Below the pieces are notes generated by a model. The model made no database searches and was not told the DNA's origin. It saw only the letters and a program-made list of their open reading frames with translations. 64,000 nt of DNA, from positions 54,145 to 118,144 of the forward strand of contig JAGWLG010000009.1 in assembly GCA_028864975.1 (NCBI GenBank). The letters are read 5' to 3'. Positions 2,159-63,344 of the stretch are shown here, one piece after another. The stretch comes from Thermoplasmata archaeon. GTDB taxonomy: Archaea; Thermoplasmatota; Thermoplasmata; Lutacidiplasmatales; UBA184. Every line of letters begins with the position of its first letter. Position 1 is the stretch's first letter. The position numbers and the translations under genes were made by a program.

Positions 2159-2625
2159 GCGCCTCGGGACCGCCGCGCGCGTCGGGCCCTGCGCGGCCCC
2201 TCGGGTCTCGGCAGGGCCGCAGCGTCCTCTCGCTCGACAGCGACCTCGGTCAGCTCGCTGGGCTCCTCAGGGGCAGGCACCGGAGCTTGAGAGGTGCCAG
2301 CCTTCCTTTGGACCTCTCCCAGCTCGAGCAACATCGAGTTCGTCGCCTCCTGGAGGGCGAAGAGGAACGCGCGCTCGGCCTCCTTGACGGAAGCAAGCAC
2401 CCTCGGGTCCCGGGGGCCCCGACGCAGGCCCTCCTCCGCGGCCTTCCGAAAGGCGGAGACGGCGTGGAGGCCGGACATGAGCGTCGAGGGGTTCAGAAGG
2501 GCCGCGAGGAGGAGCTTCGCATGCCGGTCCAGCTCCCCCTGGATGAACGTCGGCTCGGGGAGCCACTTTCGGATCTTCTCGCGCGCGGCCGTCGCTTGAG
2601 GTTTCGCTTGGGACCTACGAGGCAT
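2155..2625 (-). CDS. Hypothetical helical protein, overlaps the ArsA-family gene end
   Basis: 156-aa ORF with normal composition, 11-nt overlap with upstream gene. Confidence 0.65.
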   Translation of the reverse strand: MPRRSQAKPQATAAREKIRKWLPEPTFIQGELDRHAKLLLAALLNPSTLMSGLHAVSAFRKAAEEGLRRGPRDPRVLASVKEAERAFLFALQEATNSMLLELGEVQRKAGTSQAPVPAPEEPSELTEVAVEREDAAALPRPEGPRRARRARRSRGA

Positions 2626-3805
2626 GTTGGGGGACCTCCTTGGAAGGTAGGAACTCGATGAGGAGGGACCCCCCCGAGAAGACGGCCTTCCCGAGCTTGG
2701 CCCCGATGTACGCGTAGGGCAGGAGCAACGTCCGCCGGTACCATCCCACCTTGACGTAGAGCGTGTCGCCGCGCGAGGAGACCTCGAGCGCCTCCTCCCC
2801 CGCGAACGGGAGCTCGATCTTCACGTACTTCTTCCCCGATCGGGAGAAGAAGCGGACCGGCTGGGCCCGCGCGAAGATCCTCGTCGGGTCCTCCGCGTCG
2901 AACACGTCCGTGCCGAGGCGGCGAAGCCGCTCCAGGCCCAGGACCTCATGGGGATAGCGGGGCGAGCGCCGCATCGGGACGCCACCGAAGTACTCCTCGA
3001 TGAGACCCAGGTTCGCTTTCTGCTCCGCGAGTGCCTGCTCGAAGAACTTCCCGTCCAGCTGGTCCGAGAAGACCCGGTTCACGACGAGCATCTCGATCGG
3101 CAGACCGAAGAGGCAGAGGTAGGTGTAGGCCCGCTGGGTCTCGGTGATGACCATCCGCTCGGGATTGAGCACGAGACGGACAGAGGTCCGGTCCGGGTCA
3201 GAGAGCATGTTGCGCACCCGACGGAAGCGCAGGTAGAGGTCCTCCAGCGATTCGAAGAACCGGTCCGAGGGCAGCGGGGTGCGCATGAGGCGCCCCACCG
3301 TGGGTCGGGCGACCTTCATCATCCTCTTCTCGAGCTTGAAGAACCGGTCGAAGTACCACTGGACGGCGTCCGGGAAGGAGAGGAGCCGAAGCGTGTCGGC
3401 CGTCGGAGCGGTGTCGACGATGGCGACGTCCCAGGACTTCTCCCTCTCGTACCGCTCGAGGAGGAGCAGAGCGGCGATGAGCTCCATGCCGGGGATCACC
3501 ACGACCTCCTTGGCCGTGATCTCCTCGACCCCCTGGGACTGGAGCAGGGCGGTGAGGTAGTTCGAGATCTCGGCCCAATGGCGTTCCATCTCGGCCAGGA
3601 CGTCGATCTCCTGTCCCCACAGTCGGTCGGTCACCTTCGTGGGGTCGCGCCCGAGCGATACCTGGAGCGAGTCCCCGAGCGAGTGCGCGCTATCGGTCGA
3701 CATGACGAGCGTGCGGTGGCCATGGGCGGCGGAGGCGAGCGCCGTGGCGGCCGCGAGGCTCGTCTTCCCCACGCCGCCCTTCCCCGTGTAGATGATGGTC
3801 CTCAC
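2615..3805 (-). CDS. ArsA/Get3-family ATPase with C-terminal HSP20-like domain
   Basis: GKGGVGKT Walker A, STDSAHSLGD switch I, DTAPT switch II, beta-rich C-terminus (YVKIELPF...YVKVGWYRRTLLLP). Confidence 0.92.
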   Translation of the reverse strand: MRTIIYTGKGGVGKTSLAAATALASAAHGHRTLVMSTDSAHSLGDSLQVSLGRDPTKVTDRLWGQEIDVLAEMERHWAEISNYLTALLQSQGVEEITAKEVVVIPGMELIAALLLLERYEREKSWDVAIVDTAPTADTLRLLSFPDAVQWYFDRFFKLEKRMMKVARPTVGRLMRTPLPSDRFFESLEDLYLRFRRVRNMLSDPDRTSVRLVLNPERMVITETQRAYTYLCLFGLPIEMLVVNRVFSDQLDGKFFEQALAEQKANLGLIEEYFGGVPMRRSPRYPHEVLGLERLRRLGTDVFDAEDPTRIFARAQPVRFFSRSGKKYVKIELPFAGEEALEVSSRGDTLYVKVGWYRRTLLLPYAYIGAKLGKAVFSGGSLLIEFLPSKEVPQHAS

Positions 3806-4002
3806 GGCGCCTCCTCGTCTCCTTCGAGCGTATCCGCCTCGTTCCTCGCGTCCTTCTCCAGAACGAGGGCCCCCTCATAGCCGCAGCGGCGGCAGCGATA
3901 ACGGGTCCCCCCGAAGAGCAACGGGTCGCGGTCGACCTCTGGCGAGAGACACTTGGGGCAGAGGAGGATGGACGGTCCTCGGGGCCGTCGGCGGACCGGC
4001 AC
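3802..4002 (-). CDS. Small zinc-finger protein
   Basis: CPKC...CRRCGYEG; stop overlaps the ArsA GTG; start at GTG 4002 inferred. Confidence 0.65.
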   Translation of the reverse strand: MPVRRRPRGPSILLCPKCLSPEVDRDPLLFGGTRYRCRRCGYEGALVLEKDARNEADTLEGDEEAP

Positions 4003-4027
4003 GTTCTTCCCTCCGAGGGTGAAGGGC

Positions 4028-6640
4028 CTACGGCTCCTCGTCCTTCTCCGAAGGGGGGTTCGGGGGGGAGCCCTCCCCTTCGCTCTCCAGGGCGGGAGGG
4101 GGCGGTGAGGGTGGCGGGGGGGCCGAGCCTTCCGCAAGCGTAGTGGCAACCTGCTCCGGCGCCGACGCTTCCCCGGGGGCGACGAGCCGAACGGCGGCCT
4201 TGACCTCATCCCCCTCCTCGATGCGGATGATGATGACGCCGAGGGTGTTGCGCCCCTGCTCCCGGATCTGGCGGACAGGGCTACGGATCGTGATCCCTTT
4301 CTGGGTGGTAACGAGGATCTCGTCCTCTTCACGGACCGGGATGACGGCGACGACCTCCCCGTTGCGGCCGCCCGTCTTGATGCCGATGACCCCGCTCGCG
4401 CCCCGCTTCGTGAGGCGGTACTCCTCCACCGGCGTGCGCTTGCCGAAGCCCGTCGAGGTGAGGGTCAGGAGCGATGGGAACGTGGGGCTCACCGGGCTCA
4501 TCCCGACCACCTGGTCCTTCTCGCCCAGGCGGGCCCCGATGACGCCGTAGGTGGCCCTCCCCATGGGGCGCAGCTCGGTCTCCTTGAACCGGATGACCTG
4601 CCCTTCCTTGGTCGCGAGGAGGATCTCGCTATCGCCCTGGGTGAGCGCGACGTCCACGAGCTCGTCCCCTTCCTCCAGGAGGATGGCCTGGATCCCGCTC
4701 ACGCGGATGTTCTGGTAGAGGGTGAGCTCGGTCCGCTTCACGAGCCCCTTCGCCGTCGCGAAGACGAGGGTCCCGGGCCCCTCGAGCCCCCGGACCGCGA
4801 GCTCGGTCTGGATCTTCTCCCCTTGCTGGAGCCGCGGGAGGAGGTTGACGATCGCCTTCCCCTTGGCATGGCGTCCGAGCTCGGGGAGCTCGTAGGCCTT
4901 CAGTCGGTACACGCGGCCCTTGCTGGTGAAGAACAGGACGTCGTCGTGCGTCCGCGCGGCGAGCGCGCGCGTCACGAAGTCCTCCTCCTTCGTCTCCATC
5001 TGGACGAGGCCCTTGCCGCCGCGGCGCTGGCGGCGGTAGGAGTCGAGCGGCAGCCGCTTGATGTACCCGTCGTTCGAGATCAGCACGACGATGTCCGTGT
5101 CGGGGATCAGGTCCTCGAGCGAGTGCTCGGTGAACGCGGAGGTGAGCTGTGTCCTTCGCGCATCCCCGTACTTCTGTCGGATCTCCTCAAGCTCGTGGTC
5201 GACGACCTTGTCCAGGACGTGCGGGCGGGCAAGGATCTCCTCGAGCTCCTTGACGAGGTTCTTCTTCTCCTCGGACTCCTCCAGGATCGACTCGCGCTCG
5301 AGGGCGGTGAGCCGAGCGAGCCGCATGTCGAGGATCGCCTTGGCCTGCTCCTCGGAGAGGAGGAACTTGCCCATGAGCGAGGCCTGCGCGGTGGGGACAT
5401 CCTTCGAGCGGCGCAGGAGCTTCACGATCTCATCGATGTGGTCGATGGCCGTGAGGAACCCCTCGAGGATGTGCAGGCGTTCCTGCGCCTTTCTCAGGTC
5501 GTAGGTGCTCCGTCTTCGGACGATCTCGCGACGGTGGTCCAGGTGGAGCTGCAGGAGCTCCTTCAGCGGGAGGACGCGGGGTCGGCCGTCCACTAGGGCG
5601 AGGTTGATGATCCCGAAGGAGACCTGGAGCTTCGTGTGGGTGAAGAGCTGATTGAGGACGATCTCGCTCTGGGCGTCCCGTCTCAGCTCGAAGACGACGG
5701 AGATCCCGTCCTTGTCGCTCTCGTCCCGGAGGTCGGTGATGCCGTCGATCCGCTTGGACTTCACCAGCTCGGCCGTTTCCTGGAGGAGCTGGGACTTGTT
5801 GACCTCGTAGGGGATCTCCGTCACGACGATCTCGTTGCGGTCGTCGCGGACGCGCGACTCCGCCCGCGCCCGGATCTGGATGATGCCGCGCCCCGTCGTG
5901 TAGGCCTCCTTCAGGCCCTCCGTGGAGACGATCCCACCCGTGGGGAAGTCGGGGGCGGGGACGAACTTCATGATCTCCTCGAGCGGGAGGTTCGGGTCGG
6001 CGAGCAGCGCGCGCAGCGCGTCGACGACCTCGCCCAGGTTGTGGGGGGGCATGTTCGTCGCCATCCCCACGGCGATGCCGCTCGCCCCGTTCACGAGAAG
6101 GTTCGGGAGCTTCGAGGGGAGCATCCGCGGCTCCTTGAGGCTCCCGTCGAAGTTGTCGGTCCATTCGACCGTCTCCTTCTCGATGTCCTGGAGCATCTCT
6201 TCCGCGAGCGCGCCCAGGCGGGCCTCGGTGTACCGCATCGCGGCGGGGGTGTCCCCATCGATGGAACCGAAGTTCCCCTGCCCTTCGATGAGCGGGTAGC
6301 GGAGCGAGAAAGGCTGGGCCATCCGGACCAGCGCATCGTAGACGCTCATGTCGCCGTGCGGATGGTACTTCCCCAGCACGTCCCCCACCGTGCGCGCGGA
6401 CTTGCGGAACGGCTTGTCGTGGGTCGCCCCAGATTCCCACATCGACCACAGGATGCGCACCTGGACCGGTTTCAGACCGTCGCGGACGTTCGGGAGCGCG
6501 CGTCCGACGATGACGCTCATCGCGTAGTCGATGTAGGAGCGGTGCATCTCCCGCTCCAGGGGTTGCAGCCGGACCCGGCTCCCCTCAGGATGGGCCTCCG
6601 CGGGGGGAGGTGGAGGGGGCGACGCCGGGGCTTCCGCCAT
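4028..6640 (-). CDS. gyrA: DNA gyrase subunit A
   Basis: [29 protein letters not shown] catalytic Tyr, GyrA-box QRRGGKG, beta-pinwheel repeats; start at ATG 6640. Confidence 0.97.
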
Positions 6641-51111: not shown

Positions 51112-51134
51112 CTCCCGAAAAGTGGAAACTCCGC

Positions 51135-51251
51135 TGACGGCCAAAGCAGCGGGGAAACACCCGGTCCCATTCCGAACCCGGCAGTTAAGCCCGCCGGCGT
51201 TCCACGTGGTACTGAAGTGCGCGAGCCTACGGGAAGCGTGGAAAGCTGTCA
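51135..51251 (+). rRNA. rrf: 5S ribosomal RNA
   Basis: TGACGGCC..., CACCCGGTCCCATTCCGAACCCGGCAGTTAAGC conserved core, terminal stem TGACGGC/GCTGTCA. Confidence 0.95.
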
Positions 51252-51505
51252 GCACCTAACATGACAGCCCGGGCACTGTACAAACGCATTTGGCTGGGAG
51301 ATGTCACGAAAGGCCCCCGGACCGCCCCCCGTGGTAGCTTGGGCCCGTCTGGTTCCCGCCCGACCAGGCTAGCCGCGACATCGCCGTCCTCAAGCAACGC
51401 TAGTGGGCGAACGCCTCGCCCGGTTCCTCCGCCGTCGATCAGCAAGACCAACGCCGGATGTGAACTCCTTTCCCCTCGGGAGGACCCCGGGGACCCCCTA
51501 CACCT

Positions 51506-52489
51506 CTAGCTCTTCCCTTCCGGGAAGAGCGACGCCATCCTGGCGTCGAACCTGGAGAGGCCCTCGCGCATCTGGTCCTCGTCCACGCCGATGTAGTGCG
51601 TGGTCATGTCCACGGAGGCGTGGCCCATGAAGTTCTTCAGGTCGACCAGGCTCATGCCGCTCTGATAGGCCAGTCGGCCGAACGTTCTCCGCAGGTCGTG
51701 GTTCGAGACCCTGATCCCCAACCCTGACCGCCGGACGGCCCGGGTGAGAAGGTTGTCCAATCCTGAGGCTGAGCGAGGCAGGACCAGAGCATCGGAGGCC
51801 TTGCCCTCGACCCACGGCCCCAGGACCGCGGCGGTGGCATGGGTCATGGGGATCGTGCGCCACTTCCCTCCGACCCGTCCCTTGCCGCAGACACGCATCC
51901 TCCCCCGCTCGAAGTCGAGGTCCCGGACCCGGAGGCGTTTGACCTCGATCCTTCGCAGGGCGTTGCACCCTTCGAGCACGACCAGCACCTTCTCTGGGCC
52001 CTGGGCCGCTTGAGCGAGGACGAGCAGGTCGCGATGCTGCAGCCAACGCCGGCGGGTCGCTTCTCCTGAGGGCAGTCTCCAAGCTGCCGCATGGTCGGCG
52101 AGAGGGTGCCGAAGGCTTCGAAGGAGCCGGCGAAGGGCCGAAAAGTACACGGCGAGGCCGTTGCGGCTCCATCCGAGCCGGTCGCGCACGGCGCGCAAGT
52201 GCTCGGTGTCGAGCGCCTCCGGGCTAGGGGGCACGAGGTACCCTGCCCGGCGAAGGACCCCGGGGGTCCTCGCGATGTGCCACCGGATCCTTCGAGCCCA
52301 CTCCTCGCCCACCGAGCCCTCGCGGCGGACAGCTTCCCACAGGATGTTGGCCGCCGAGCTCCACACCTCATCGATGTCCGGTTTGGACCCACCTGAAGGG
52401 AGCGCCGACGATGGCTGCCCCCCGGATCCTACGGCAGGTGCTCCAAAGTCGAGGAGCGAGGACTGGGCGTGGGTCCCGTGCGGTGCCAC
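51506..52489 (-). CDS. Tyrosine recombinase/integrase
   Basis: LRRIE (R), GKG (K), HDLRRT (HxxR), MGH, THY (Tyr); no IntI-specific insertion. Confidence 0.92.
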   Translation of the reverse strand: MAPHGTHAQSSLLDFGAPAVGSGGQPSSALPSGGSKPDIDEVWSSAANILWEAVRREGSVGEEWARRIRWHIARTPGVLRRAGYLVPPSPEALDTEHLRAVRDRLGWSRNGLAVYFSALRRLLRSLRHPLADHAAAWRLPSGEATRRRWLQHRDLLVLAQAAQGPEKVLVVLEGCNALRRIEVKRLRVRDLDFERGRMRVCGKGRVGGKWRTIPMTHATAAVLGPWVEGKASDALVLPRSASGLDNLLTRAVRRSGLGIRVSNHDLRRTFGRLAYQSGMSLVDLKNFMGHASVDMTTHYIGVDEDQMREGLSRFDARMASLFPEGKS

Positions 52490-52685: not shown

Positions 52686-53795
52686 CTACGCGGCTCGCGG
52701 GAGCTTTAGTCGCCTTCCATCGATCTCGACCGCGGCGCCGGCGTTGATGACGAACCCGAAGTATCGCGACTTGTTCTTCCCCCCTGGAAGGAACCTGTTC
52801 GTCCCGATGGCGACCGTGATCGCACCCGCCTCGATATCCTCGAGCTGCGGAGTGTCGTGGAGCTTCGGGTTGAGGCCGATCCTCAACTGTGCGGGACGGT
52901 CTCGGTCCCGTCCGCCCTTGGCATAGGGCGCTTTGAACATCTCGTCCCACCCCGTCCGGTAGTGCTGTCGGACCAGGCGCCCCCCCTCGAATTCGAAGAC
53001 CCCTCCGGTCGCCTTGGTCGTGTCCGAGTAGCAGGACCGGTTCGCGCGGATCGTTCCCTCGGCGACGGTCGGGTCGAGGGCGACGGAGACCGACCCCGCG
53101 GGGAGACTGCTCAGGATGCGATACTTGTTCTTCCGATCCTGCGCCGTGGGTGTACCGGTGGCGATGACCGCACGGTTCCCCGAGAGCCCGAGCGTGAGGT
53201 CGGTCCCCTGGTCGTCGTGGACCCGGACGCGATGCCCCCGCTCCAGGGCCCGAGCAATAGGTGCGGCGGCTCGCTGCAAGGCGGCAGGGTTCACCATCGA
53301 GGCCTCGAGGAGCTGTCTCGTCCACGCCTCCTCGTCGACCCCGTAGGCTTTGGCCAGCGAGGGGAATGGCCGTCCGATCTCGAGGCGGGCCCCGCGCACC
53401 CCGGCTTTCGCTGCGGTGTTGTACCAGTTCTCGTTCCACGCGAAAGCCCTCTCCGCGCGAGGCCCCAGCTTCGTGAGGCGCAGCTTGTCCCCCGGTCCCC
53501 ACATGTGAACGTAGACGTCGGTCTTGCCGAGCGCCGCCCACTCGTGGGCGGGTTCTGCGCCGTAGAGCGTCTCCTGCTTCGCGGCGAGACCATCCCAGAA
53601 CGCTTCCTCATCTTCGTAGAGGACGAGCGGGTACGCCCGTAGGCGTCGCACCTCACGCGCGAGCGCCGTTGCCCACGGTAGGGAATGGCTCCAGCCTTCG
53701 ATGATGACGTTCTCTCCTGGACGGACCTTGAGGTACTGATTCAAGATCGAACGGGCGAACTTGGCTTCCGGCGCGACCGAGGGTCTGGTCGACAT
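52686..53795 (-). CDS. M29 (aminopeptidase T/AmpS)-fold protein with degenerate metal ligands
   Basis: LKVRPGENV, GTDLTLGL, LPAGSV, IGLNP, AIGTN family pattern. Confidence 0.75.
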   Translation of the reverse strand: MSTRPSVAPEAKFARSILNQYLKVRPGENVIIEGWSHSLPWATALAREVRRLRAYPLVLYEDEEAFWDGLAAKQETLYGAEPAHEWAALGKTDVYVHMWGPGDKLRLTKLGPRAERAFAWNENWYNTAAKAGVRGARLEIGRPFPSLAKAYGVDEEAWTRQLLEASMVNPAALQRAAAPIARALERGHRVRVHDDQGTDLTLGLSGNRAVIATGTPTAQDRKNKYRILSSLPAGSVSVALDPTVAEGTIRANRSCYSDTTKATGGVFEFEGGRLVRQHYRTGWDEMFKAPYAKGGRDRDRPAQLRIGLNPKLHDTPQLEDIEAGAITVAIGTNRFLPGGKNKSRYFGFVINAGAAVEIDGRRLKLPRAA

Positions 53796-53938
53796 GGACC
53801 GTCAGCGGGCCGCTCATATTTATGTCACGGGAGGAGCTGAAACCGTGGTCCCCATCAACGGGGACGCCCCTCTGGGTGAAACCAGATTTTCACCCAATTC
53901 TGATGGATTGATTATCGCCGGGAAGGCATGGTCCTGCC

Positions 53939-54529
53939 GTGAGCACCAAACGCAGCATCCGATGGAGCGAGGATTATCACCTGTACGTGGACTACGCGGA
54001 TCCCTTCGCCGAGGAGGGCGTCTTCCTGCGGATCGACCGGGGACTCTGCAAGGCCGTCGAATTGGACACCGCCAAGGACGGGCTCGAGGTGACCGTCAGG
54101 CTTCCCCCCGAGGTGGCGCCGATCCTTCATCCTGACGTCCGCAAGGAGTTGCGACAGTACTTCCGCCGCCCGACGAAGCGAGCGCTCGCCCGACAGTCAC
54201 GACAATGGACCAAGACGGCAGCCCGGTGGAAGCGTCAGGCGCGAGAAAGGCTTGCGAAACGCGCGAGCACTCCCCTGGCCTCGTTCGATACCGTTTGGAA
54301 GGACGTCCCATCGACCGTGGTCGAAGCGATCGAGTCTTGGAGGCGAGCGGTCCTCACGACCGACCCCGAAAGGGCGGAGCAGATCGCCAGGTGGTACGAG
54401 GGTCACACTCCCGAGTTTCCCCGCACGCCCGAGCAGGAACGACGCTGGAAGAAGATCATGGCCGATCTTCGACGGAGATCCAGCTCCAGCGAGAAGAAGA
54501 GGAAGTTGAGAACGCCGGTTTCCTGGTGA
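53939..54529 (+). CDS. Hypothetical protein
   Basis: 196-aa ORF with normal composition, GTG start. Confidence 0.65.
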   Translation: MSTKRSIRWSEDYHLYVDYADPFAEEGVFLRIDRGLCKAVELDTAKDGLEVTVRLPPEVAPILHPDVRKELRQYFRRPTKRALARQSRQWTKTAARWKRQARERLAKRASTPLASFDTVWKDVPSTVVEAIESWRRAVLTTDPERAEQIARWYEGHTPEFPRTPEQERRWKKIMADLRRRSSSSEKKRKLRTPVSW

Positions 54530-54937
54530 TCTCACGACGGCAAGTCGCGGGGTCGCTTGGAGAGCGCCCAGGAAATCTGAGGCCCGCCGGAGTGGCGTGG
54601 GAAGTGCGGGGCGGAGGGCTGTCGCGGGCCGACGATATACGTAGGAGTCGACGGGTGGATCACAAGGACGCGTGGGGGGCAACCCTGTATTCTTCGACCC
54701 GAGATGGGGCGCCTTCCTCTTTGCATGGAACTCGAAGGCCGATTGCGTGGTGCGCTCTGTCGGATCAAGGCGCGACCCGTTCCTCGACTCTCGGGTGTTC
54801 CAGGTTAGGGTGAAGGACCGTTAATCCTAGGAGGCCCGGGCAGGCTGTAGGTCAAGGCCGCTCCACTTCGCGTTGATAGTCAATTCGATGTGCTAATGCG
54901 CATCGGGTCGAGGGCCAAAACCGATTTGGAGGCAAAC

Positions 54938-56455
54938 ATGGGCGCACATCTGCCACTCCCGAGCGAGCTGAGCGAATTCCTCTCTCTACCAGGTCCGCAG
55001 TCGTTGCTGCTTCGGGGTTCTCCGGGCTCTGGCAAGACCACCCTCTCGATCTCCCTCCTCCAGGGCTTCCAAGGGAAGCGGGTCCTCGTGACCAGTCGGG
55101 TGTCGGCGGCGAAGTTGGAACAGGAGTTCCCATGGCTGGGGGAATCTGGACACCGGAGCATCGAGGTCATCGACACCACCGGGGCGACGGGGGACTCGAG
55201 GTCCACCTCCAAAGCGGAGCCGAGGATACGGGAGCTCCTCACGGGGGCGCAGCCCGACTCCGAAGATCTCCGGAGATTCCTGTGGCTTCCAGGACCGATG
55301 CAGCAGGCTTGGGGCGCGGCCTCCGAAAGTGCTCCGACCATCGTCGTCGTGGACTCCTGGGACGCGCTCGTGGAATCCTATCTGGGAGGCGCTTCGAAAG
55401 ATGGGGGAGCCTCTCCGAGCCGTGTCGATATCGAGCGCATCCTGCTCGAGCGGATGGGCTCGGCCCCCATCCACCTGGTCCTCCTCCTCGAGCGAGAGGG
55501 GCAGACCCCCCTGGACTACCTTGTGAACGGGGTCGTGCATCTCAAGACCGAATTCCAGGACGAAAGGTTGGAACGATGGCTCATCTTCCACAAGCTGCGC
55601 GGGATACGCATCGCGAACGCGATGTATCCGTTCAGCCTGGAGGGTGGGAAGTTCGAGTGTATCGAGCCCATGCGGCACCCCGAGAGCTTCCCGTCGGGAC
55701 GGGCCGAGCCCGAACCCGACGCGATACCGGGGCACATCTGGCCGGGGTCGAGCAGCTACGCGGACGGCTTTGGTCGCTTGCCCTTGGGCAGCATCACGAT
55801 GCTCGAGCTGGACTCGGACGTCCCGCAGTCGGTCCCCTACCTCCTGTTCTCTCCCACGGTCGCCCAGGTGGCCGGTCGGGGAGGGTCGGTCCTCATCCTT
55901 CCCGACACCGACGCCGATCCCGAGGTCCTATGGGGTCGCGTCCAGCCCAGCCTCTCTCAGAGGAAGTACCTCGACCATGTGCGTTTTGTCACTCCGACAG
56001 ACGGCAACGGTGCTTCCACCCTGGCTCCCACGTTCGATCGCACGCTCATCCACATCGGGCCGACGAACGGTAGCGGCGGATCGAAGTGGGAAGAACAGCT
56101 CGACACGTTCCTCGGTGAGGGTGAGGGCCAGGGAGCCCCGGGATTCGGGCTCTTTCACCTCTCGGGGATCCACGGGCTCACCAGTGCCTACAAGGTCCCC
56201 GTGGGGCCCGACATGATCGAGCGACTTCCCTCCATCGTCCGTAGGCTGGTTCGCGACAAGGCCATGCACACCGTCCTCGTTGGACGAAGCGGGGATCGTC
56301 TTCTCGAGGCGCTCCGCCGCGTCGCACCAAGCCACATCAGGGTCCGGATGCGCCAGGGCCGCATCCTTCTCCACGGCAGGTCGCCATGGACCCCGACGTT
56401 CCTGCTCGCCGCGGGTCAGGACCATGTTCCCTACGAGCTCCTCCGCGTCGTTTAG
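54938..56455 (+). CDS. GvpD-like KaiC/RAD55-family ATPase (two RecA-like domains, second degenerate)
   Basis: RGSPGSGKTT, VVVDSWDAL, LDYLVNGVVHL, KLRG; GGAGG SD before ATG 54938. Confidence 0.85.
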   Translation: MGAHLPLPSELSEFLSLPGPQSLLLRGSPGSGKTTLSISLLQGFQGKRVLVTSRVSAAKLEQEFPWLGESGHRSIEVIDTTGATGDSRSTSKAEPRIRELLTGAQPDSEDLRRFLWLPGPMQQAWGAASESAPTIVVVDSWDALVESYLGGASKDGGASPSRVDIERILLERMGSAPIHLVLLLEREGQTPLDYLVNGVVHLKTEFQDERLERWLIFHKLRGIRIANAMYPFSLEGGKFECIEPMRHPESFPSGRAEPEPDAIPGHIWPGSSSYADGFGRLPLGSITMLELDSDVPQSVPYLLFSPTVAQVAGRGGSVLILPDTDADPEVLWGRVQPSLSQRKYLDHVRFVTPTDGNGASTLAPTFDRTLIHIGPTNGSGGSKWEEQLDTFLGEGEGQGAPGFGLFHLSGIHGLTSAYKVPVGPDMIERLPSIVRRLVRDKAMHTVLVGRSGDRLLEALRRVAPSHIRVRMRQGRILLHGRSPWTPTFLLAAGQDHVPYELLRVV

Positions 56456-56569
56456 GGGGGCACTACCCACTTTGCTTCGTCCAAACCCTTCCGAGGTCGC
56501 GCACCCGGGCCCAGGCGCTCAAGTAGCCCTTCCCTTCAGTGGAGGTACTTCGGAGGACGGATCCCGCGT

Positions 56570-57175
56570 CTAGTCCGGTTCCTGTTCCGCGTGGAAGCGG
56601 ATGGGAGAATCGTCCTTCGGGGGCTTCTCCGGGGACTCTCCGCTTCCCTCGTCCCCTTCACGCTCCTCTTCCTCTGAGATCTCCTCGGCGACCAGACCGG
56701 AGACGCTCCGGATCTCCGCGAGGACGACCGTCGGGTCCTCACGATCGTCCAGGAGGAACAAGTACTCCGCGGGTGACTCCCCCTCCTCGGTCGGAGCGAC
56801 GGAACCATCGGAGAGAGCCTCCCCGCGCATGCGCACCCGCAACAGGCGGCGACTCTCCCCCGGCGGTTGGAGGATGTCCATCTTCAGGACGTCCCGATGA
56901 GGAATGGTCACATCGTCGGCACCCTCCTCCCGGATGCCTCCGAAAGGTCCGCCACTCAGGTCCGCCAAGTAGTGACGAAGGTTCCAGCTCGTGAGGACCA
57001 GGAGCCCGTGGCTGGTGTCAGGGTCGATCCGACGTACGCGGCCGTAGTACCAAATCGAGTCATCGATCTCGCCATTCTCGGAGAGGCGTACGGGGACACC
57101 TCGCCAGCAAGCGATGAACTTCTCTCCGGGGTCGAGCCGAACGTCCTGGTCGTAGGGGGACGGTAGCTTCTCCAC
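56570..57175 (-). CDS. Hypothetical protein, possible PH-like fold with acidic tail
   Basis: HGLLVLTSWNL pattern, Glu-rich C-terminus. Confidence 0.6.
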   Translation of the reverse strand: MEKLPSPYDQDVRLDPGEKFIACWRGVPVRLSENGEIDDSIWYYGRVRRIDPDTSHGLLVLTSWNLRHYLADLSGGPFGGIREEGADDVTIPHRDVLKMDILQPPGESRRLLRVRMRGEALSDGSVAPTEEGESPAEYLFLLDDREDPTVVLAEIRSVSGLVAEEISEEEEREGDEGSGESPEKPPKDDSPIRFHAEQEPD

Positions 57176-57527
57176 GTGGCTAACCTCGTGATGTGCGTTC
57201 GGCCGCAGGAAGGCAGCGGCTCTTCAAGATGCTGCCCGGAGATTCGCATGCGTGGATCGCACCCATGACGGTCGGCCTGCGGCAACGAATGTCGAGGCCA
57301 TGAATCCATCCTGACGTGCAGGTTGCGGGTTCGCGCTACCGTTACCCGCGGTCCGATCCAGCTCTTGGGTGAGGTCCTTCTTGCGTCGCCTGCGTCTGGG
57401 TCCATGAACGATCGCATGTTCCGACCAGAGCGCATGGTCCTCGTGCAGTCCCGAATGCACACGCGACTCGGAAACCGACCCAAGTCTGCGACCCCTTGGA
57501 TTGGGCCTTCCGGGTCGGAGGCCCGTT

Positions 57528-57743
57528 CTAGGGCACCTGAAAGGACGCGATCGCGAGCTGCAGAGCTATGCGCCGACGTTCCTCTGACGACCCCAATGAC
57601 TCACCGAACATCGTCTGCGCCTGTTGGCGGGCCGCCGGTTCGTTGGCCAGTTCGGTCATCACGGCGGACTGGCAGCTGGCCAGGCTCATGGTCATCCGAG
57701 CCCATCGCTTCACGAATTCCTTTGCTAGGTCGTCCTCTCGCAT
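57528..57743 (-). CDS. Small hypothetical helical protein
   Basis: 71-aa ORF; only composition supports it. Confidence 0.35.
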   Translation of the reverse strand: MREDDLAKEFVKRWARMTMSLASCQSAVMTELANEPAARQQAQTMFGESLGSSEERRRIALQLAIASFQVP

Positions 57744-57907
57744 GGTCGCGGAACCGGACGACGCCCCTTCAAGGTGCTGGAAGTCCGGGATCGGGCGTCG
57801 CGGGGGTTGAGGATGCAGCGCGACGTGGGTCCAGCCACCTCGTTGTCATGGGCGGGCGGAGAGCTCGCCTTCCCGGTAGGACCATTCGTGAAGTGTTCAT
57901 GGCAGGG

Positions 57908-57924
57908 TGCAATTGCGATTGCGC
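57908..57924. repeat. Palindromic site A (TGCAA-TTGCGA-TTGCGC)
   Basis: GCAA-N6-TTGC, intergenic, 52 nt beyond the relE-like stop. Confidence 0.6.
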
Positions 57925-57975
57925 CGCGAGTCGAGGTGGAGGGTGCCGGGAAACCCGCACCGGACCTGAGTTGGT

Positions 57976-58293
57976 TCAGAATCTGGAGGGGGGGAGTCGG
58001 TCCTTGTCTCTAAGGCGTGAGTAGAATCCTGGACGCGGCCCTAAGCCCAGAAACCTGACGATTTCGCCGTCCACATCGAAGATGGCCCTGAACCTGCGGG
58101 GAGGGAACTCATTGAGCTTCAACTCCCATAAGAGGGGATGATCCCGGATTCCGTGAATCGTGTATCCAAGGCCCGACCGAAACGGGCGATGAAGAATATC
58201 TGGGAGAATCTCCTCGAAGACCCTGCGAACTTCCAAGTCGAGAGCAAGATACTCTTCGTCGGCCGGCGAACGAAATGCCAGACGATGGATCAT
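57976..58293 (-). CDS. RelE/ParE-like toxin
   Basis: 105 aa, LWELKL..RRFRAIFDVDGEIVRFLGLGPR, directly after a small antitoxin-like gene. Confidence 0.75.
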   Translation of the reverse strand: MIHRLAFRSPADEEYLALDLEVRRVFEEILPDILHRPFRSGLGYTIHGIRDHPLLWELKLNEFPPRRFRAIFDVDGEIVRFLGLGPRPGFYSRLRDKDRLPPSRF

Positions 58294-58295
58294 GC

Positions 58296-58526
58296 TCAGT
58301 AGCCTTTCTTGGCCTGAGCACGTGAGCGTCGGATGATCTCGGAGCCTGGGACGTCCTCACCGGAGTGCCGACGTCGCTCCATTTCTTCGTACCACCCCGG
58401 GGGTACGTAGTCCTCGGCCATGTCCAGTAGGAACTGGTCCCAAGTCTGATTGGCCGTCTTCAGCTTCTGGAGACGTTCGATGACTTGGGCGTGCGCTGGA
58501 ATGGAACTTAGCCGGTCGGGTGCCAT
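58296..58526 (-). CDS. Antitoxin-like small DNA-binding protein (RHH-like N-terminus)
   Basis: SSIPAHAQVIERLQKLK..QTWDQFLLDM; 2-nt gap to the toxin; alternative start at 58550. Confidence 0.7.
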   Translation of the reverse strand: MAPDRLSSIPAHAQVIERLQKLKTANQTWDQFLLDMAEDYVPPGWYEEMERRRHSGEDVPGSEIIRRSRAQAKKGY

Positions 58527-58664
58527 ATCATGATGGTCAATGATGGCCATGTACTTAGGAGTTCGGGCATCAATGAGATGTGGCGCATGGTGGCCACCGA
58601 TTGGGGACAAGTTCACCTCATGGGCCGGGGGGAGAACCGGACCGTTGAGGCGCGTAGGCTGAGA

Positions 58665-58681
58665 TGCAACTGTGATTGCAC
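58665..58681. repeat. Palindromic site B (TGCAA-CTGTGA-TTGCAC)
   Basis: 14/17 identical to site A; between the two TA-like modules. Confidence 0.6.
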
Positions 58682-58703
58682 GCTACGTCAGACGACGATG
58701 TTG

Positions 58704-59309
58704 TCAGCGCTTCGTGAGGCGCAGGCGACGCGCCGGCGGAGAATCTGAGACCTTGCGGGCACGTGAGAGCATTTGCTCGTACTCCCGGACTACCTTCTCT
58801 TGAGCTACTTCGCTCTCCAGGTACTCAGTGTCGAATCGATCGACAAGCCGAAGGTAGAGCATGACCGCCTCGTCGAGGGCGTGCGCGGACTTCTTGCCGT
58901 AGTCTCCAGCAGCGTAAATCAGACGTCGGACGATGAGGTCCTCTGGGGCCGCGAGCCTGACCGGGCCGTGCGGTGTCCCCACGACCGTGGTTGCCTCCCA
59001 AAGTCCGGCGTACTTGTCTCGTCCAAGCTCGACCACCAGGCTGAGGTCGTTGCGAGTCCAATAGCGCCCGTCAAAGTCGAATCCCCACTGAGAAAGAATC
59101 GGGGCGAGCCGTGTCTTGCCCCCGACGATGTCCACGTCTCCGGAAACGTACATCCCATCGGTGTAGATCTCAATCGCTGAGCCGCCAACGATCACCAACC
59201 GGTCACCCAATCCCGATTCCGTCGCCAAGAGGGCGCCGAGAAAGGCAACTCGGCGATCTGGACGCGGTTCGTTAGAGAGGATTGAGTCGAACTCCTCGCG
59301 ACTAACCAT
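58704..59309 (-). CDS. Nucleotidyltransferase (DUF6036/AbiEii-like) putative toxin
   Basis: IVGGSA...SGDVDIV DNA-pol-beta-type NTase motif, AAPEDLIVRR. Confidence 0.78.
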   Translation of the reverse strand: MVSREEFDSILSNEPRPDRRVAFLGALLATESGLGDRLVIVGGSAIEIYTDGMYVSGDVDIVGGKTRLAPILSQWGFDFDGRYWTRNDLSLVVELGRDKYAGLWEATTVVGTPHGPVRLAAPEDLIVRRLIYAAGDYGKKSAHALDEAVMLYLRLVDRFDTEYLESEVAQEKVVREYEQMLSRARKVSDSPPARRLRLTKR

Positions 59310-59760
59310 GCTCGGAACCCCTCAATCCCGCTGCCTGAAGGACTCGGTCCTTCGACGCGTGTCGAATGGGCAGAGGCTTCCCTCGATAGGTCAGGGCGCG
59401 CCGGGTGTGGCCGCGAGGGGTTGGAAGGGCTCGCAATTGGGCAGCGATAGCGAGGGTGGACGGCCTGAGCCTCTGCTTCTCTGCCACCCAATCATCCAAC
59501 CACAGCATTCGCGCCCGCTTCCTAAGAAGCTGGACGAGGTCCGCATCCACCAGGGCATACCCTCTGCCGTCCTTGCTGACAATGCCCGCTGACGACGCAC
59601 GATGAAGCTCTTGGTAGACCTTGACTCGCGGAAGCCCCGTCAGGACTGCGATTCGGTACCCTGTCATGGGGTCTGGCGCACTGGCCAGCGCGGCAAGTGT
59701 CGCGAGGCGAGTGTGGCTTCCCGTGAACGCCTCCAGACCTGGATCAAGCCGCATCTTCAT
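59302..59760 (-). CDS. Winged-HTH protein, putative antitoxin partner of the NTase
   Basis: MTGYRIAVLTGLPRVKVYQELHR HTH; 8-nt overlap with the NTase. Confidence 0.75.
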   Translation of the reverse strand: MKMRLDPGLEAFTGSHTRLATLAALASAPDPMTGYRIAVLTGLPRVKVYQELHRASSAGIVSKDGRGYALVDADLVQLLRKRARMLWLDDWVAEKQRLRPSTLAIAAQLRALPTPRGHTRRALTYRGKPLPIRHASKDRVLQAAGLRGSEHG

Positions 59761-59931
59761 CAGATAGGATACAGTTGGGTTCCTATTTGTAGGATACCAA
59801 TAAGGTCCGTACTGCGAACTGACCATCTGGAGAGACGGAGAAGCGCGCGTTCACGGATATCCGATCGGTCTCCAAGCAAGGGCAGGAGCAAGAGCTCCCA
59901 ATGCGAATGTGGTACGTTGAACTCATCTATT

Positions 59932-59948
59932 CGCAAGGCCGATTGCAC
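59932..59948. repeat. Palindromic site C (CGCAA-GGCCGA-TTGCAC)
   Basis: GCAA-N6-TTGC; its 12-nt core AAGGCCGATTGC is repeated at 54735-54746. Confidence 0.6.
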
Positions 59949-60217
59949 CTCCTCTTGTCTGGGCGCGGGTTGCGCTGGATAGCTGGCGCCGAGATGTGGA
60001 AGTCGGTTTGCACCTGAGCTGTCCGAGTCGGAAGCATCGGAAGTCCAATGGCACGCTCCTCGATGCGGCCTCTCTCGAGTGGCCCGCGCTGTTCAATGGG
60101 TTGACTTCTTGGGAGGCCGCTCCATTCGCTGGCCGGTGGGTCATGTCAGTCGGTCGCCCGTCACGCGCGGGTCACGAGCGCGAGAGTGAGCCATCTCATG
60201 CGGGCCAACGCGACGGC

Positions 60218-60494: not shown

Positions 60495-60932
60495 ATGAGC
60501 GAGAACGTGCCGGAGCCGCCAAACCTGTGGAAGGGGTGCACGACGGGTGCCGACCTGATCCCAACTTTGGATCTGGATGAAGAGGATGAGTTCGAGCTCT
60601 TCAATGCGGACCGGTCCAAGAGAGTAACTGGGCTGTGGGATGTGGATGGGAACTACCAGCTCTTCGTCTTTTCCCGGCCATCCCGCTCCGCGGTTCGATT
60701 AGCAGACAGTGCGGTCCACAAAGCCCGTGCGGAGTGCAAGAGTCTCTCCGAGAAGCTCTCTAACATCTCGAATGATCCGTGGCCTGGAGAAGTCGAAGAG
60801 GATGGTGCCATCGCAACCGGTCCTGGACTTGTGAGGGACATTTTCGAGGAGCAAGGAATCCCCTTCCAAGTGAAGGCCAGGAGCACATCGGATGGACTCT
60901 TCCCTTCGTCTGACGAGGCTCGCGGGCGATGA
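60495..60932 (+). CDS. Acidic hypothetical protein
   Basis: 145-aa ORF with ATG start. Confidence 0.55.
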   Translation: MSENVPEPPNLWKGCTTGADLIPTLDLDEEDEFELFNADRSKRVTGLWDVDGNYQLFVFSRPSRSAVRLADSAVHKARAECKSLSEKLSNISNDPWPGEVEEDGAIATGPGLVRDIFEEQGIPFQVKARSTSDGLFPSSDEARGR

Positions 60933-61002
60933 CGGACAAGCTGCGGTTGCACCCGCACGGTTGGGCGTCCGGATCGGGCAGATCTCATGAGCAGCGATCG
61001 CG

Positions 61003-61221
61003 TTGGCTGACATGGCTGCTCGAAAGTCAAGATCGGACCTCTCGCACCGCGCAATGACTTGGTGGAAGTCGGAAGGGCGTCAGCGTGTGCATGGACTCGA
61101 GTTTCATCTAGAAATCATCGAGATCATGACCCTCGGGTTCACAAAGGAGGAACGAGCTCTCCTCTCCGAAGTCGTTCGCCAGGTCCTTATGGGGGGCAAG
61201 TCCATTCGACGCTTCATGTGA
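61003..61221 (+). CDS. Small hypothetical protein
   Basis: 72-aa ORF upstream of the DUF2075 gene. Confidence 0.35.
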   Translation: MADMAARKSRSDLSHRAMTWWKSEGRQRVHGLEFHLEIIEIMTLGFTKEERALLSEVVRQVLMGGKSIRRFM

Positions 61222-61321
61222 TACCGTGTCGACATGTAAACCAGATCTCCCTCCCGAGGTTTGACACTGGCGCAACTACGGGCGCTACCATAATCACGGA
61301 CGAACGCTCGGGTGAAGCAGT

Positions 61322-63241
61322 TTGATGCTCGAGGAACGATGTGCTTGGGCTGGGCACTTCGATCAATTCGTCGGCCTACCGGACCGCACGCTCTTCTCGC
61401 ACCTCACACGATTCACCCGAGAGAAGGAACCACTCCAACTCGGCGCTTGGCGGGACAGTCTCGAAGCCCTCCAAAGAGAGGCGGGCGAGTGCATTCGAGC
61501 CAGCCCCGTTGCGAGTGGCTTCGGGGCGGTATTGGAGTACAAGCTCTCTGTCGACCGCGCGCGCCGGCCCGACGTGGTCGTCTTGGAGAACGGCTCGGTG
61601 GTCGTCCTAGAATTCAAGTCGACGGCGCACGTTCGACAGGCCGATCTCGACCAAGTCGCCGGGTATGCTCGGGATCTCGAGGGCTATCACGAAGCCAGCC
61701 AAAACCGCCACGTAATCCCGGTGCTCATCCCGATGAGATTCCGTAGCGGGAGGTTCCACCAAGGGTCCACGTGGATCTGTCCACCAAACGAGCTTGCAGC
61801 GTTGTTGCTCGATCTGACCGGTGGTACTGCTGCCGGGCGAGCGGACATTGAGAAGTGGGTTCGCTCCGAGTTCGTACCGCTCCCCAAACTCGTCGAGTCC
61901 GCTCGTCTCATTTTCGAACGCTCCCCCTTACCGTTCATACGGAGGGTCTCCGAGGCAGGCATTCCCAACCTGATCGAGAGGATGTTAGGGGTATGCCGCG
62001 AGGCCGCCCAGCGCGGGCAGCGCCACCTCATCCTGCTCTCCGGAGTGCCGGGCTCGGGGAAGACTCTCGCCGGACTCCAGCTGGTTCACCATCCAGGGCT
62101 TGATATCATCGCAACTGCAGGGTCATCCAATAGAGCCATTTCGCCCGCGGTTTTTCTCTCCGGGAACGGCCCCCTCGTAAAGGTCCTCCGACATGCGCTC
62201 GGAAGCAAAGTCTTCGTTACGGACATCTGGACGTATCTTCGCAAGAACCTCGAAGAGGGCGCACTTGCACCCCGCGAGCATGTGGTCGTCTTCGACGAGG
62301 CGCAGAGGGCGTGGGACCATCGAAAGGTCTTCGACAGCCATGACAGTCTCCTCGGCGATCGCTCAGAACCCCAACTTCTCCTTGAGAGCTGCGAGAAAGT
62401 TCGCGATTGGTGCACCCTGGTCGGGCTCTTCGGTGAGGGCCAGGAGATTCACTCCGGGGAGGAGGGGGGGATTCAACTTTGGATTGATGCAGTTTCAAAG
62501 AAGGATGGTACGACTTGGTTTGTTCATGGACCTGAACGCTGGAGGACCGGATTCGAAGCTGTGGGTGCCAGCTACGATTCGGCTCCCGAATTCGACCTCA
62601 CCCAGAGCATCAGGAGCCACCTGGCCGTGGGCTCGGCGGCTTGGGCATCCCTACTTCTGTCAGGTCGCCTGGGGGAGGCCAGGAACGTTGTAAGCTCTGG
62701 ACTGAGGGAGTTCCCAATCTACGCCACTCGTAGCTTGGAGGACGCGAAGTCCTACGTTCACGAGAGATACAGGGGTGAAGGGGACGGCTATCGATGGGGA
62801 CTCCTGGCGTCCTCCAAGGCGCGCAATCTCTCGGGGTACGGGGTTCGAAACGACTGGATGTCGACTAAGGTGGTCAACCACGGGGCCTGGTACAACGATG
62901 CTCCGACAGCCCCGAAGTCGTGTTGCCAGCTCCAGGACGTCGTAACGGAATTTGGTTGTCAAGGACTCGAACTGGATCTTCCGCTAGTGTGTTGGGGGGA
63001 TGACCTCGTTTGGAGCGGGACCAAGTGGACTTCCGACTCCAAGCCGAGCAAGGGGGTCGAGGATGCCTTGAGACTACGCCTGAATGCATACCGCGTGCTC
63101 CTCACTAGAGGCCGGGATGGGATTTGCATCTTCGTCCCGGAGTCACCGAAAGTGGAAATGGACAGCACCTACCGCTCACTCTTGGATGCAGGCGTGTCTC
63201 CCCTGCTTCCTGGCGTGAGCGAGGCCCAATCGGCACAATAG
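61322..63241 (+). CDS. NERD-like nuclease fused to DUF2075 (Schlafen group 3-type) helicase/ATPase
   Basis: RPDVVVL...VLEFKS PD-(D/E)xK motif, SGVPGSGKT, VVFDEAQRAW, TEFGCQGLELD, NAYRVLLTRGRDG. Confidence 0.9.
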   Translation: MMLEERCAWAGHFDQFVGLPDRTLFSHLTRFTREKEPLQLGAWRDSLEALQREAGECIRASPVASGFGAVLEYKLSVDRARRPDVVVLENGSVVVLEFKSTAHVRQADLDQVAGYARDLEGYHEASQNRHVIPVLIPMRFRSGRFHQGSTWICPPNELAALLLDLTGGTAAGRADIEKWVRSEFVPLPKLVESARLIFERSPLPFIRRVSEAGIPNLIERMLGVCREAAQRGQRHLILLSGVPGSGKTLAGLQLVHHPGLDIIATAGSSNRAISPAVFLSGNGPLVKVLRHALGSKVFVTDIWTYLRKNLEEGALAPREHVVVFDEAQRAWDHRKVFDSHDSLLGDRSEPQLLLESCEKVRDWCTLVGLFGEGQEIHSGEEGGIQLWIDAVSKKDGTTWFVHGPERWRTGFEAVGASYDSAPEFDLTQSIRSHLAVGSAAWASLLLSGRLGEARNVVSSGLREFPIYATRSLEDAKSYVHERYRGEGDGYRWGLLASSKARNLSGYGVRNDWMSTKVVNHGAWYNDAPTAPKSCCQLQDVVTEFGCQGLELDLPLVCWGDDLVWSGTKWTSDSKPSKGVEDALRLRLNAYRVLLTRGRDGICIFVPESPKVEMDSTYRSLLDAGVSPLLPGVSEAQSAQ

Positions 63242-63344
63242 CCGTTGCACCAACCGTACACGGAAGACGACCGACGTTCCCGATGCCGAAGGCCTCGTGT
63301 CGTCCGAAAGTGCTATCAGACGTTGATTTGGTCAATCCCACTGC

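Follow-up and report, generated by a model that had tools for sequence, protein, structure and literature searches.

A 22-bp palindrome that probably marks the junctions of exchanged gene cassettes in an uncultured family of soil Thermoplasmata

The DNA considered here (the window) is the final 64 kb of a 118-kb contig in the metagenome-assembled genome (MAG; 3.6 Mb, 67% G + C) of a Thermoplasmata archaeon, and our subject is a short palindrome that recurs among the small genes near its end. A first-pass annotation, made from the sequence alone, had drawn attention to three intergenic copies of the motif GCAA-N6-TTGC, here called sites A, B and C, and had proposed that they either delimit the modules of an undescribed gene-cassette system acted on by a Xer-like enzyme or are operators of a single transcription factor. 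The description of the locus holds on re-examination. Checks of exact position place the start of TGCAATTGCGATTGCGC at 57908 (site A), of TGCAACTGTGATTGCAC at 58665 (site B) and of CGCAAGGCCGATTGCAC at 59932 (site C), and a scan of the 64 kb confirms that these are its only exact matches; each of the three 6-bp spacers ends in GA; and, when the gene layout is re-read, A and B enclose genes for a ParE/RelE-type toxin and its antitoxin partner, and B and C enclose genes for a nucleotidyltransferase and a winged-helix DNA-binding (wHTH) partner, all four being on the minus strand (Table 1).

Sites A, B and C are contained in a longer, 22-bp palindrome, R-GGTGCAA-N6-TTGCACC-Y, of which the window has six copies, confined to the interval 53.9–63.3 kb, within an island of low G + C content (GC) at the contig end (the final 6 kb of the window has a GC of 58–60%). 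The three additional copies (E, D and F, at 53874, 59994 and 63231, respectively) have arms that depart from GCAA/TTGC, and had been overlooked; elsewhere in the 64 kb, a matrix trained on relatives gives no score above 8.5 bits. Site E, at the left edge of the island, is 79 bp upstream of a gene for an M29 peptidase. Site A, with one mismatch over 14 arm positions, is 50 bp 3′ of the toxin stop codon, and site B is 20 bp past that of the nucleotidyltransferase. Site C, with three mismatches over 14 arm positions, is upstream of the wHTH gene, and makes a pair with site D, 65 bp away, with no gene in between. Site F is near the noise level of the genome (at ≥12 bits there are 40 matches, compared with 24 in the control). 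Gene-free pairs of sites 31–65 bp apart recur (window 59929–60015; contig C2 of genome G008, 366735/366766 and 376493/376527; locus L033, 4092/4127; and genome G013: G, C and L numbers are our labels for genomes, contigs and loci), and such close pairs may be empty slots or composite sites.

Table 1. Copies of the palindrome, and the genes and modules around them (positions within the window; aa, amino acids; ORF, open reading frame)
Feature	Position	Strand	Remarks
5S rRNA gene	51133–51254	+	100.9 bits
Xer-like tyrosine recombinase, candidate enzyme	51506–52489	-	PF00589, E 7e-18
M29 peptidase	52686–53795		
Site E (variant copy)	53874–53895		GGGTGAAA-N6-TTTCACCC; perfect 8-bp arms; 14.9 bits
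E-to-A module	53939–57743		196-aa ORF (+), KaiC/GvpD-like ATPase 54890–56455 (+), 201-aa ORF (-), 71-aa ORF (-)
Site A	57905–57926		GGGTGCAA ttgcga TTGCGCCG; 21.8 bits; genome rank 2
ParE/RelE-type toxin	57976–58293	-	105 aa; from ESM Atlas features and predicted structure
Antitoxin, probably ribbon-helix-helix	58296–58526	-	76 aa; start revised to 58526 from homologues
Site B	58662–58683		AGATGCAA ctgtga TTGCACGC; 21.2 bits; genome rank 3
Nucleotidyltransferase, DUF6036/DUF2204/AbiEii kind	58704–59309	-	201 aa
wHTH partner, predicted	59302–59826	-	8-bp overlap with nucleotidyltransferase gene
Site C	59929–59950		ATTCGCAA ggccga TTGCACCT; 18.3 bits; genome rank 9
Site D	59994–60015		ATGTGGAA gtcggt TTGCACCT; 16.5 bits
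D-to-F module	60495–63241	+	145-aa ORF; Schlafen-group-3-type helicase 61322–63241, PF09848, E 2.5e-59
Site F (weak copy)	63231–63252		CGGCACAA tagccg TTGCACCA; 12.1 bits; overlaps helicase stop codon

The labels given to the genes in the first-pass annotation (antitoxin/RelE and HTH/nucleotidyltransferase) seem reasonable but are best read as leads that fall short of curated thresholds: matches in Pfam and NCBIfam are absent or weak, and the support comes from the ESM Atlas and from the conserved pairing of the genes. For the four module genes there was nothing at E ≤ 0.01 in Pfam or NCBIfam, weak hints appearing only at E 10, and PDB sequence searches gave no match. The toxin has no Pfam match even at E 10 and no NCBIfam match; in the ESM Atlas it has a feature score of 0.95, with 180 shared features, and TM values of 0.72–0.79 to clusters carrying PF05016. 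The antitoxin, the gene for which adjoins that for the toxin, is conserved in seven homologous loci (24 invariant columns), and probably has a ribbon-helix-helix fold, although this is not established by its low-confidence AlphaFold model (pLDDT 69), which is too weak for a fold search. The nucleotidyltransferase has a weak match to Pfam DUF6036 (E 0.13 only), and in the Atlas has feature scores of 0.95–0.98 and TM values of 0.80–0.85 to DUF6036/DUF2204/AbiEii clusters. Its wHTH partner gives weak matches to helix-turn-helix (HTH) families of the TrmB, IclR and Crp kinds (E 0.015–0.03), and the two genes stay paired in 17 of 19 homologous loci (one of which, L103, is from G056, a genome flagged as unpublished).

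How likely is it that the three sites represent anything more than chance, as matches, in a stretch of low GC, to a motif defined after the fact? Shuffles of the window are expected to contain 0.31 matches to GCAA-N6-TTGC, and three were reached in one of 100 shuffles; moreover, a genome-wide scan for this 8-base core finds it at background frequency (19 copies, compared with 6–20 at other spacer lengths; base composition alone would predict about 33). The extended palindrome, which came to light in the flanks of these 19 copies, behaves quite differently. Allowing up to one mismatch, GTGCAA-N6-TTGCAC has 17 sites in this genome at N6, compared with 0–3 at other spacers of 2–11 bp, and an arms-only matrix finds 17 sites of ≥16 bits at spacer 6, compared with 0–2 at spacers 3–9. 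With the full matrix (the scoring matrices having been trained on sites of other genomes only), A, B and C rank second, third and ninth in the whole 3.6-Mb genome, and the identical motif is found in dozens of relatives. An origin by chance is thus hardly to be credited: the extended motif is real, and the 6-bp spacer is required.

Some 17–30 spacer-specific copies are present in this genome. They are mostly intergenic, and are concentrated in low-GC contig ends (C124, 1–17 kb; C10, 1–8 kb; C7; C24; and the end of the window), where the defence and toxin–antitoxin genes around them include those for an N6/N4 methylase-Mrr-type nuclease fusion, a TIR-like protein, PIN/MazE, DpnI, a Hypoth_Ymh protein, Fic, a double AsnC-HTH protein and DUF234/archaeal ATPases.

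The palindrome was then sought, as a 20-mer with up to one mismatch and with reversed-pattern controls, in 151 genomes of the order (this count, like the integrase survey and the tally of nucleotidyltransferase homologues, takes in genomes flagged as unpublished, G033, G044 and G056, on which alone no specific claim depends). Ten or more copies were present in 18 of the 151 (reversed controls, 0–3) and many genomes, the three others of this genus among them, had none, so the distribution is patchy. The system is found across the family, and is not private to the locus in the window. The sharpest array is that of G008 (five contigs, 93% complete), in which all 37 copies, 21 of them perfect, fall inside 186 kb of one contig; looser cut-offs give 51–72 copies in about 190 kb, compared with 2–5 at other spacers, and the GC of the array is 54–64%, compared with 67% in its flanks. 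In G018, the copies cluster in about 100 kb. A logo of 148 sites from five relatives, R-GGTGCAA-yNNNNr-TTGCACC-Y, has eight conserved positions per arm and a near-free centre. Its pair of identical inverted arms, on either side of a 6-bp centre, is the core layout of a tyrosine recombinase site, as the first-pass annotation had suggested. The sites bound modules of one to three genes in both orientations, and the cargo of the G008 array (GNAT, PIN, methyltransferases, glyoxalase, SnoaL and cyclase/TPR proteins) is, by analogy, integron-like.

Outside this family (f1), three genomes of about 42% GC belonging to family f2 (G021, G023 and G024) gave 23–26 matches to an 18-mer with one mismatch, compared with none for the reversed control. 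These copies are scattered, one that was examined may sit inside a gene, and the CG-containing control is perhaps too low in AT-rich genomes. A site on contig C34 of G021 whose inner 16 bases match those of site B was taken as a coincidence (the genome is of 42% GC and the surroundings are unrelated), and the f2 enrichment, and with it the system outside family f1, is therefore uncertain. Palindromes with other arms but the same layout were also encountered in cassette-like positions: GTTGTAA-N6-TTACAAC right after a homologue of the nucleotidyltransferase gene (L104 1116–1135, in G065), GGTCCAA-N6-TTGAACC (L093 67–86, in G063) and, in the window itself, GGTGAAA-N6-TTTCACC (site E). Variant families of the site may therefore exist, in which case our counts of the motif are underestimates.

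The positions of the sites within arrays bear on the alternative put forward in the first-pass annotation, that one transcription factor (for example, the wHTH protein or the antitoxin) binds all of them and so co-regulates neighbouring operons. Palindromes of fixed spacer suit dimeric factors, type II antitoxins control their own operons, and B and C do lie upstream of two operons, 136 bp from the start codon for the antitoxin and 103 bp from that of the wHTH gene, respectively. Site A, however, is downstream of the toxin gene, and the wider picture is no more favourable. In G008, 49 of 51 copies are intergenic, with 27 in tandem, 11 in divergent and 11 in convergent gaps, which is the background mix and gives no sign that gaps containing promoters are preferred; the sites are nearer to stop codons (median 104 bp) than to start codons (median 329 bp); the cargo is unrelated from site to site; in an 80%-identical paralogous module (see below) the copy of site B has lost its symmetry; and homologous HTH/nucleotidyltransferase pairs mostly have no site. 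We therefore regard shared operators as improbable. We also considered and rejected a sigma-54-like promoter, a CRP/FNR-type or NrpR-type operator and a restriction site: the sequence is a misfit for each, and there are sites between convergent genes.

Might the function of the palindrome lie instead in the transcribed RNA, as a 3′ stem-loop, a terminator or a site of processing? Many copies are 20–100 bp past stop codons, and the arms could form a 7–8-bp stem. Yet the arms are conserved as sequence: mismatches between them are almost never compensated (2 of 50 double-mismatch sites), and it follows that a protein reads the sequence and that a hairpin is not selected. In addition, the flank is C-rich, without a T-run, there are sites between divergent genes, no Rfam family is matched, and an RNA element would leave unexplained the breakpoints in homology, inside the site, that are described next. 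Such a function appears very improbable indeed, and more so than an operator.

Evidence that suggests a role in the exchange of DNA comes from sequences shared between genomes. A 1.1-kb segment of G008 (372646–373754) is 86–88% identical to two copies in G013 that are in unrelated surroundings, and in all three copies the alignment runs from one site to the next. This cassette encodes a 44%-identical homologue of the nucleotidyltransferase of the window, which ties the local nucleotidyltransferase module to a pool of mobile cassettes. More generally, in a comparison that covered arrays from five relatives together with the islands of the present genome, 18 of 76 endpoints of inter-genome matches of ≥78% identity fell within 12 bp of a site centre, compared with 1.2% for random positions (binomial p ~1e-18, the endpoints not being independent); matches of <70% identity had no excess of endpoints at sites. 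The junctions that the cassette hypothesis predicted for related genomes, with breakpoints inside the site, are thus to be seen in relatives. Because recently shared DNA ends at sites, because the arrays are intergenic and because sites occupy convergent gaps, the evidence supports junctions between cassettes and disfavours shared operators, and it seems probable that sites A, B and C are copies of the 22-bp junction palindrome of a system by which cassettes are exchanged within one uncultured family of soil Thermoplasmata. By the same judgement, the last 10 kb of the window is probably a small, partly decayed cassette array in a low-GC island.

Between genomes, identical site centres are more frequent than expected (35 pairs, compared with a simulated mean of 19), some of them being locally collinear. 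We note that the centres TGCCTG, TGCCTC, TGCCCC and GGTCCG occur in roughly the same order in G008 (C2 329831–348230) and G018 (C5 472502–478473), and that the interval from TGCCTC to GGTCCG is 8 kb in one species and 0.75 kb in the other.

Several observations weigh against exchange between cassettes, either in the family at large or at this locus. Within arrays, nearly all centres are different (there are three identical pairs in G008 and none elsewhere), and a classical tyrosine recombinase would rarely recombine sites with differing centres. The support from junctions comes from the comparison of MAG sequences, in which no excised circles or alternative junctions were seen. The motif is not enriched in the genus outside this genome (three other genomes), and the local copies depart from the consensus at 1–3 of 14 arm positions. 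Within 1.5 kb of the RelE-module homologues of genomes in g3 and g4 there is no site, and the same is true of most HTH/nucleotidyltransferase homologues elsewhere. In addition, two local boundaries are off-site. An 80%-identical paralogue of the RelE module is present on contig C49 of this genome, where the homology fades just beyond a decayed, asymmetric copy of site B, whereas the opposite end of the paralogue does not coincide with site A; and the DNA specific to this genome (G000) at the locus has its right edge 1.3 kb from the nearest site.

That second boundary emerges from comparison with G002, of the same genus (locus L040), in which genes for an M29 peptidase (2147–3238) and a Schlafen-type helicase (3388–5328) are direct tandem neighbours. 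In the window, the peptidase gene is inverted relative to that of G002 and is separated from the helicase gene by about 7.4 kb of other genes that are absent from the corresponding place in G002. On the left, DNA homology with G002 stops at 53843, 31 bp from site E; no empty site of ≥8 bits was found at the M29/helicase junction of G002. The idea that the local modules end at the sites is accordingly borne out only in part (for the left edge, near E, and for the end of C49 homology near B, but not for the A end or the right edge), and the local array may be old or inactive. Among the genes of the island, the 71-aa ORF of the E-to-A module is conserved in G005 and G072; the KaiC/GvpD-type P-loop ATPase of the same module (521 aa) has a DUF7504 region, and its gene adjoins the unannotated 196-aa and 201-aa ORFs. 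The final 122 bp of the contig (63879–64000) are 100% identical, on the reverse strand, to positions 1764–1885 of the 4.1-kb contig C49, and so to a stretch that abuts the RelE/antitoxin paralogue (C49 1891–2518, L036); the assembly therefore breaks at a repeat common to two cassette contexts.

It is conceivable, then, that the local copies are inert relics, which arrived with horizontally acquired cassettes from a lineage in which the system is active, and which are idle here. Every local copy is imperfect, the rest of the genus lacks enrichment of the motif, the GC of the island is low, as in the arrays of relatives, and the sites of this genome gather in low-GC contig ends. On the other hand, the spacer-specific copies enumerated above are still present, the genome has two intact integrases of the candidate family discussed below (one in the window and one on C23), and A and B match many sites of active-looking arrays in score. 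We consider inertness here rather unlikely, though a good deal less so than any of the other alternatives; it would in any case be compatible with the exchange of cassettes at these sites in the family as a whole.

Which enzyme might act on the sites? The first-pass annotation suggested the Xer-like recombinase encoded at 51506. Its catalytic residues (R, K, HxxR, H/W and Y) are present, and are conserved in 11 members of the family, so that the active site is intact by sequence. It is not an orthologue of XerA (66.9 bits with the XerA model NF040815, for which the cut-off is 220), although XerA is its nearest known relative (PDB 4a8e, E 9e-11) and this genome has a separate XerA-like gene on C73; nor is it an integron integrase (39.5 bits compared with 265 for the IntI model TIGR02249, and 21.6 compared with 435 for PRK15417). 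Homologues of 40–54% identity are widespread in the family. At least four sites were present in 28 of 58 genomes with a close integrase homologue, compared with 10 of the 92 that lack one (odds ratio 7.7, p 6e-7, uncorrected for relatedness), and in 8–9 of 10 loci, chosen by integrase homology, the integrase gene is in or beside an array, often with a site 60–150 bp from the gene.

Three further findings count against this assignment, and to that extent against the scheme as a whole. In ten motif-free genomes that have integrase homologues, neither the site nor any recurrent variant palindrome was found at the integrase loci; the integrase tree is an unresolved star, in which members linked to arrays are not split from the others; and the 51506 family is missing from G008, the sole tyrosine recombinase of which is XerA-like and is encoded on a contig other than that of the array. 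G021, too, has only an XerA-like tyrosine recombinase. As for XerA itself, the motif-free relatives G004 and G007 have no site within two mismatches above control level, and this lack of a dif-like copy of the motif in motif-free genomes argues against XerA as the enzyme. On this evidence from sequence, we place the 51506 family first among the candidates and host XerA next; the proposal that 51506 acts on the sites is favoured by co-occurrence and by adjacency to arrays, and is weakened by the presence of the family in site-free genomes and loci and by its absence from G008. The 5S rRNA gene of Table 1 is 252 bp from the 3′ end of the 51506 gene. A position beside a stable-RNA gene is typical of integrases of elements that integrate there, so 51506 could equally be the integrase of an element targeting the 5S rRNA gene; the window shows no duplicate of the end of the 5S rRNA gene.

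Enzymes of other kinds would be needed if the palindrome were a repeat of the REP/RAYT type, or the target of a homing-type nuclease, such that an HUH transposase or the nuclease spreads or cuts it and recombination is a by-product. A dispersed intergenic palindrome placed after genes is what might be expected of such a repeat. Against this, no Y1 transposase (PF01797) was found in G008, G018, G021, G004 or G007, a serine recombinase is represented only by a fragment in G008 and by nothing in G021, and there is no extended repeat around the sites, the conserved unit ending at 22 bp without any conserved flank. We judge this explanation to be improbable, in about the same degree as that of shared operators.

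If the sites are indeed cassette junctions, we envisage that one tyrosine recombinase would bind the two identical 8-bp arms and cut at the edges of the 6-bp centre, and that strands would be exchanged between copies with matching centres, as pdif sites behave. The cassettes would carry their own promoters, and the enzyme would be a member of the Xer-like integrase family of 51506 (our first choice) or host XerA; the copies in the present genome would perhaps be relics that arrived with acquired DNA. The full proposal, of an undescribed cassette platform in Thermoplasmata with arrays of about 190 kb, modules of one to three genes, the 6-bp centre as an address and a single Xer-like recombinase (of the 51506 family, or XerA), seems to us evenly poised between right and wrong. 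Of the corresponding suggestion in the first-pass annotation, the site layout, the bounding of modules and the junctions in relatives are supported, whereas the role of the 51506 enzyme and activity at this locus are conjectural. In the literature searched, we found no published description of such a site or cassette system in Archaea.

Were these true recombination sites, they would define how abundant uncultured soil archaea gather and trade genes for defence, toxin–antitoxin pairs and small metabolic functions, and cassette-based genome plasticity in archaea would extend beyond the few attC integrons reported. A working system, with its 22-bp symmetric site and few candidate single recombinases, would also provide a small lox-like tool of archaeal origin. 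In annotation, the motif offers an easy way to recognize arrays of accessory genes in these MAGs, and it may also explain assembly breaks at the arrays.

It remains to compare the proposed system with those already known. Archaeal XerA and its dif site (PMC2958812, PMC8371274) provide a precedent for two inverted repeats with a 6-nt spacer, cleaved at the spacer edges by a single tyrosine recombinase; dif, however, is a single-copy site with 11-nt arms, whereas the present site occurs tens of times in a genome and has eight conserved positions per arm, and the integrase of the window is not an XerA orthologue. Known archaeal integrons use attC and IntI (PMC9668308). Integrons and CALINs (PMC9668308) resemble the arrays described here in being arrays of small cassettes joined at a repeated site, at which cassettes have their boundaries and are exchanged (evident here in relatives, and partially at the present locus), in their cargo (GNAT, glyoxalase, methyltransferases and toxin–antitoxin pairs), in including arrays without an adjacent integrase and in their patchy distribution. 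They differ in that the attC site is a folded element of 57–141 bp, in contrast to a symmetric palindrome of 22 bp, and in that integron cassettes have one orientation and are mostly promoterless, whereas those considered here lie in both orientations and apparently carry promoters of their own; furthermore, the candidate integrase fails the IntI model, and no attI/Pc arrangement was seen.

The closest analogy, as the first-pass annotation recognized, is with the dif/pdif modules of Acinetobacter plasmids, which are acted on by the host XerC/XerD (PMC13141974, PMC6449649), and it extends both to the layout of the site and to the behaviour of the modules. In each case, short sites with inverted arms and a 6-bp centre bound accessory modules of one to three genes, in either orientation, toxin–antitoxin pairs are typical cargo, the centres vary from site to site, the modules carry no recombinase of their own and crossovers take place in the sites (as judged here from the ends of homology in relatives). 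The centres of pdif sites on Acinetobacter plasmids likewise differ, and recombination has been seen between sites with matching centres (PMC13141974). Movement of modules is also a shared feature, being represented here by a cassette found in three settings that are otherwise unrelated, the homology extending from one site to the next. There are differences, too. The arms of the thermoplasmatal site are identical, and so point to a single recombinase in place of a XerC/XerD pair; each arm has eight conserved positions, compared with 11 in pdif; the hosts are archaea, with chromosomal arrays of up to about 190 kb in place of small plasmids; and no resemblance to a chromosomal dif has been shown, motif-free genomes being without such a site. 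If our interpretation is correct, integrons and pdif modules would be joined by a third kind of cassette system, which in archaea would also be the first not to depend on attC.

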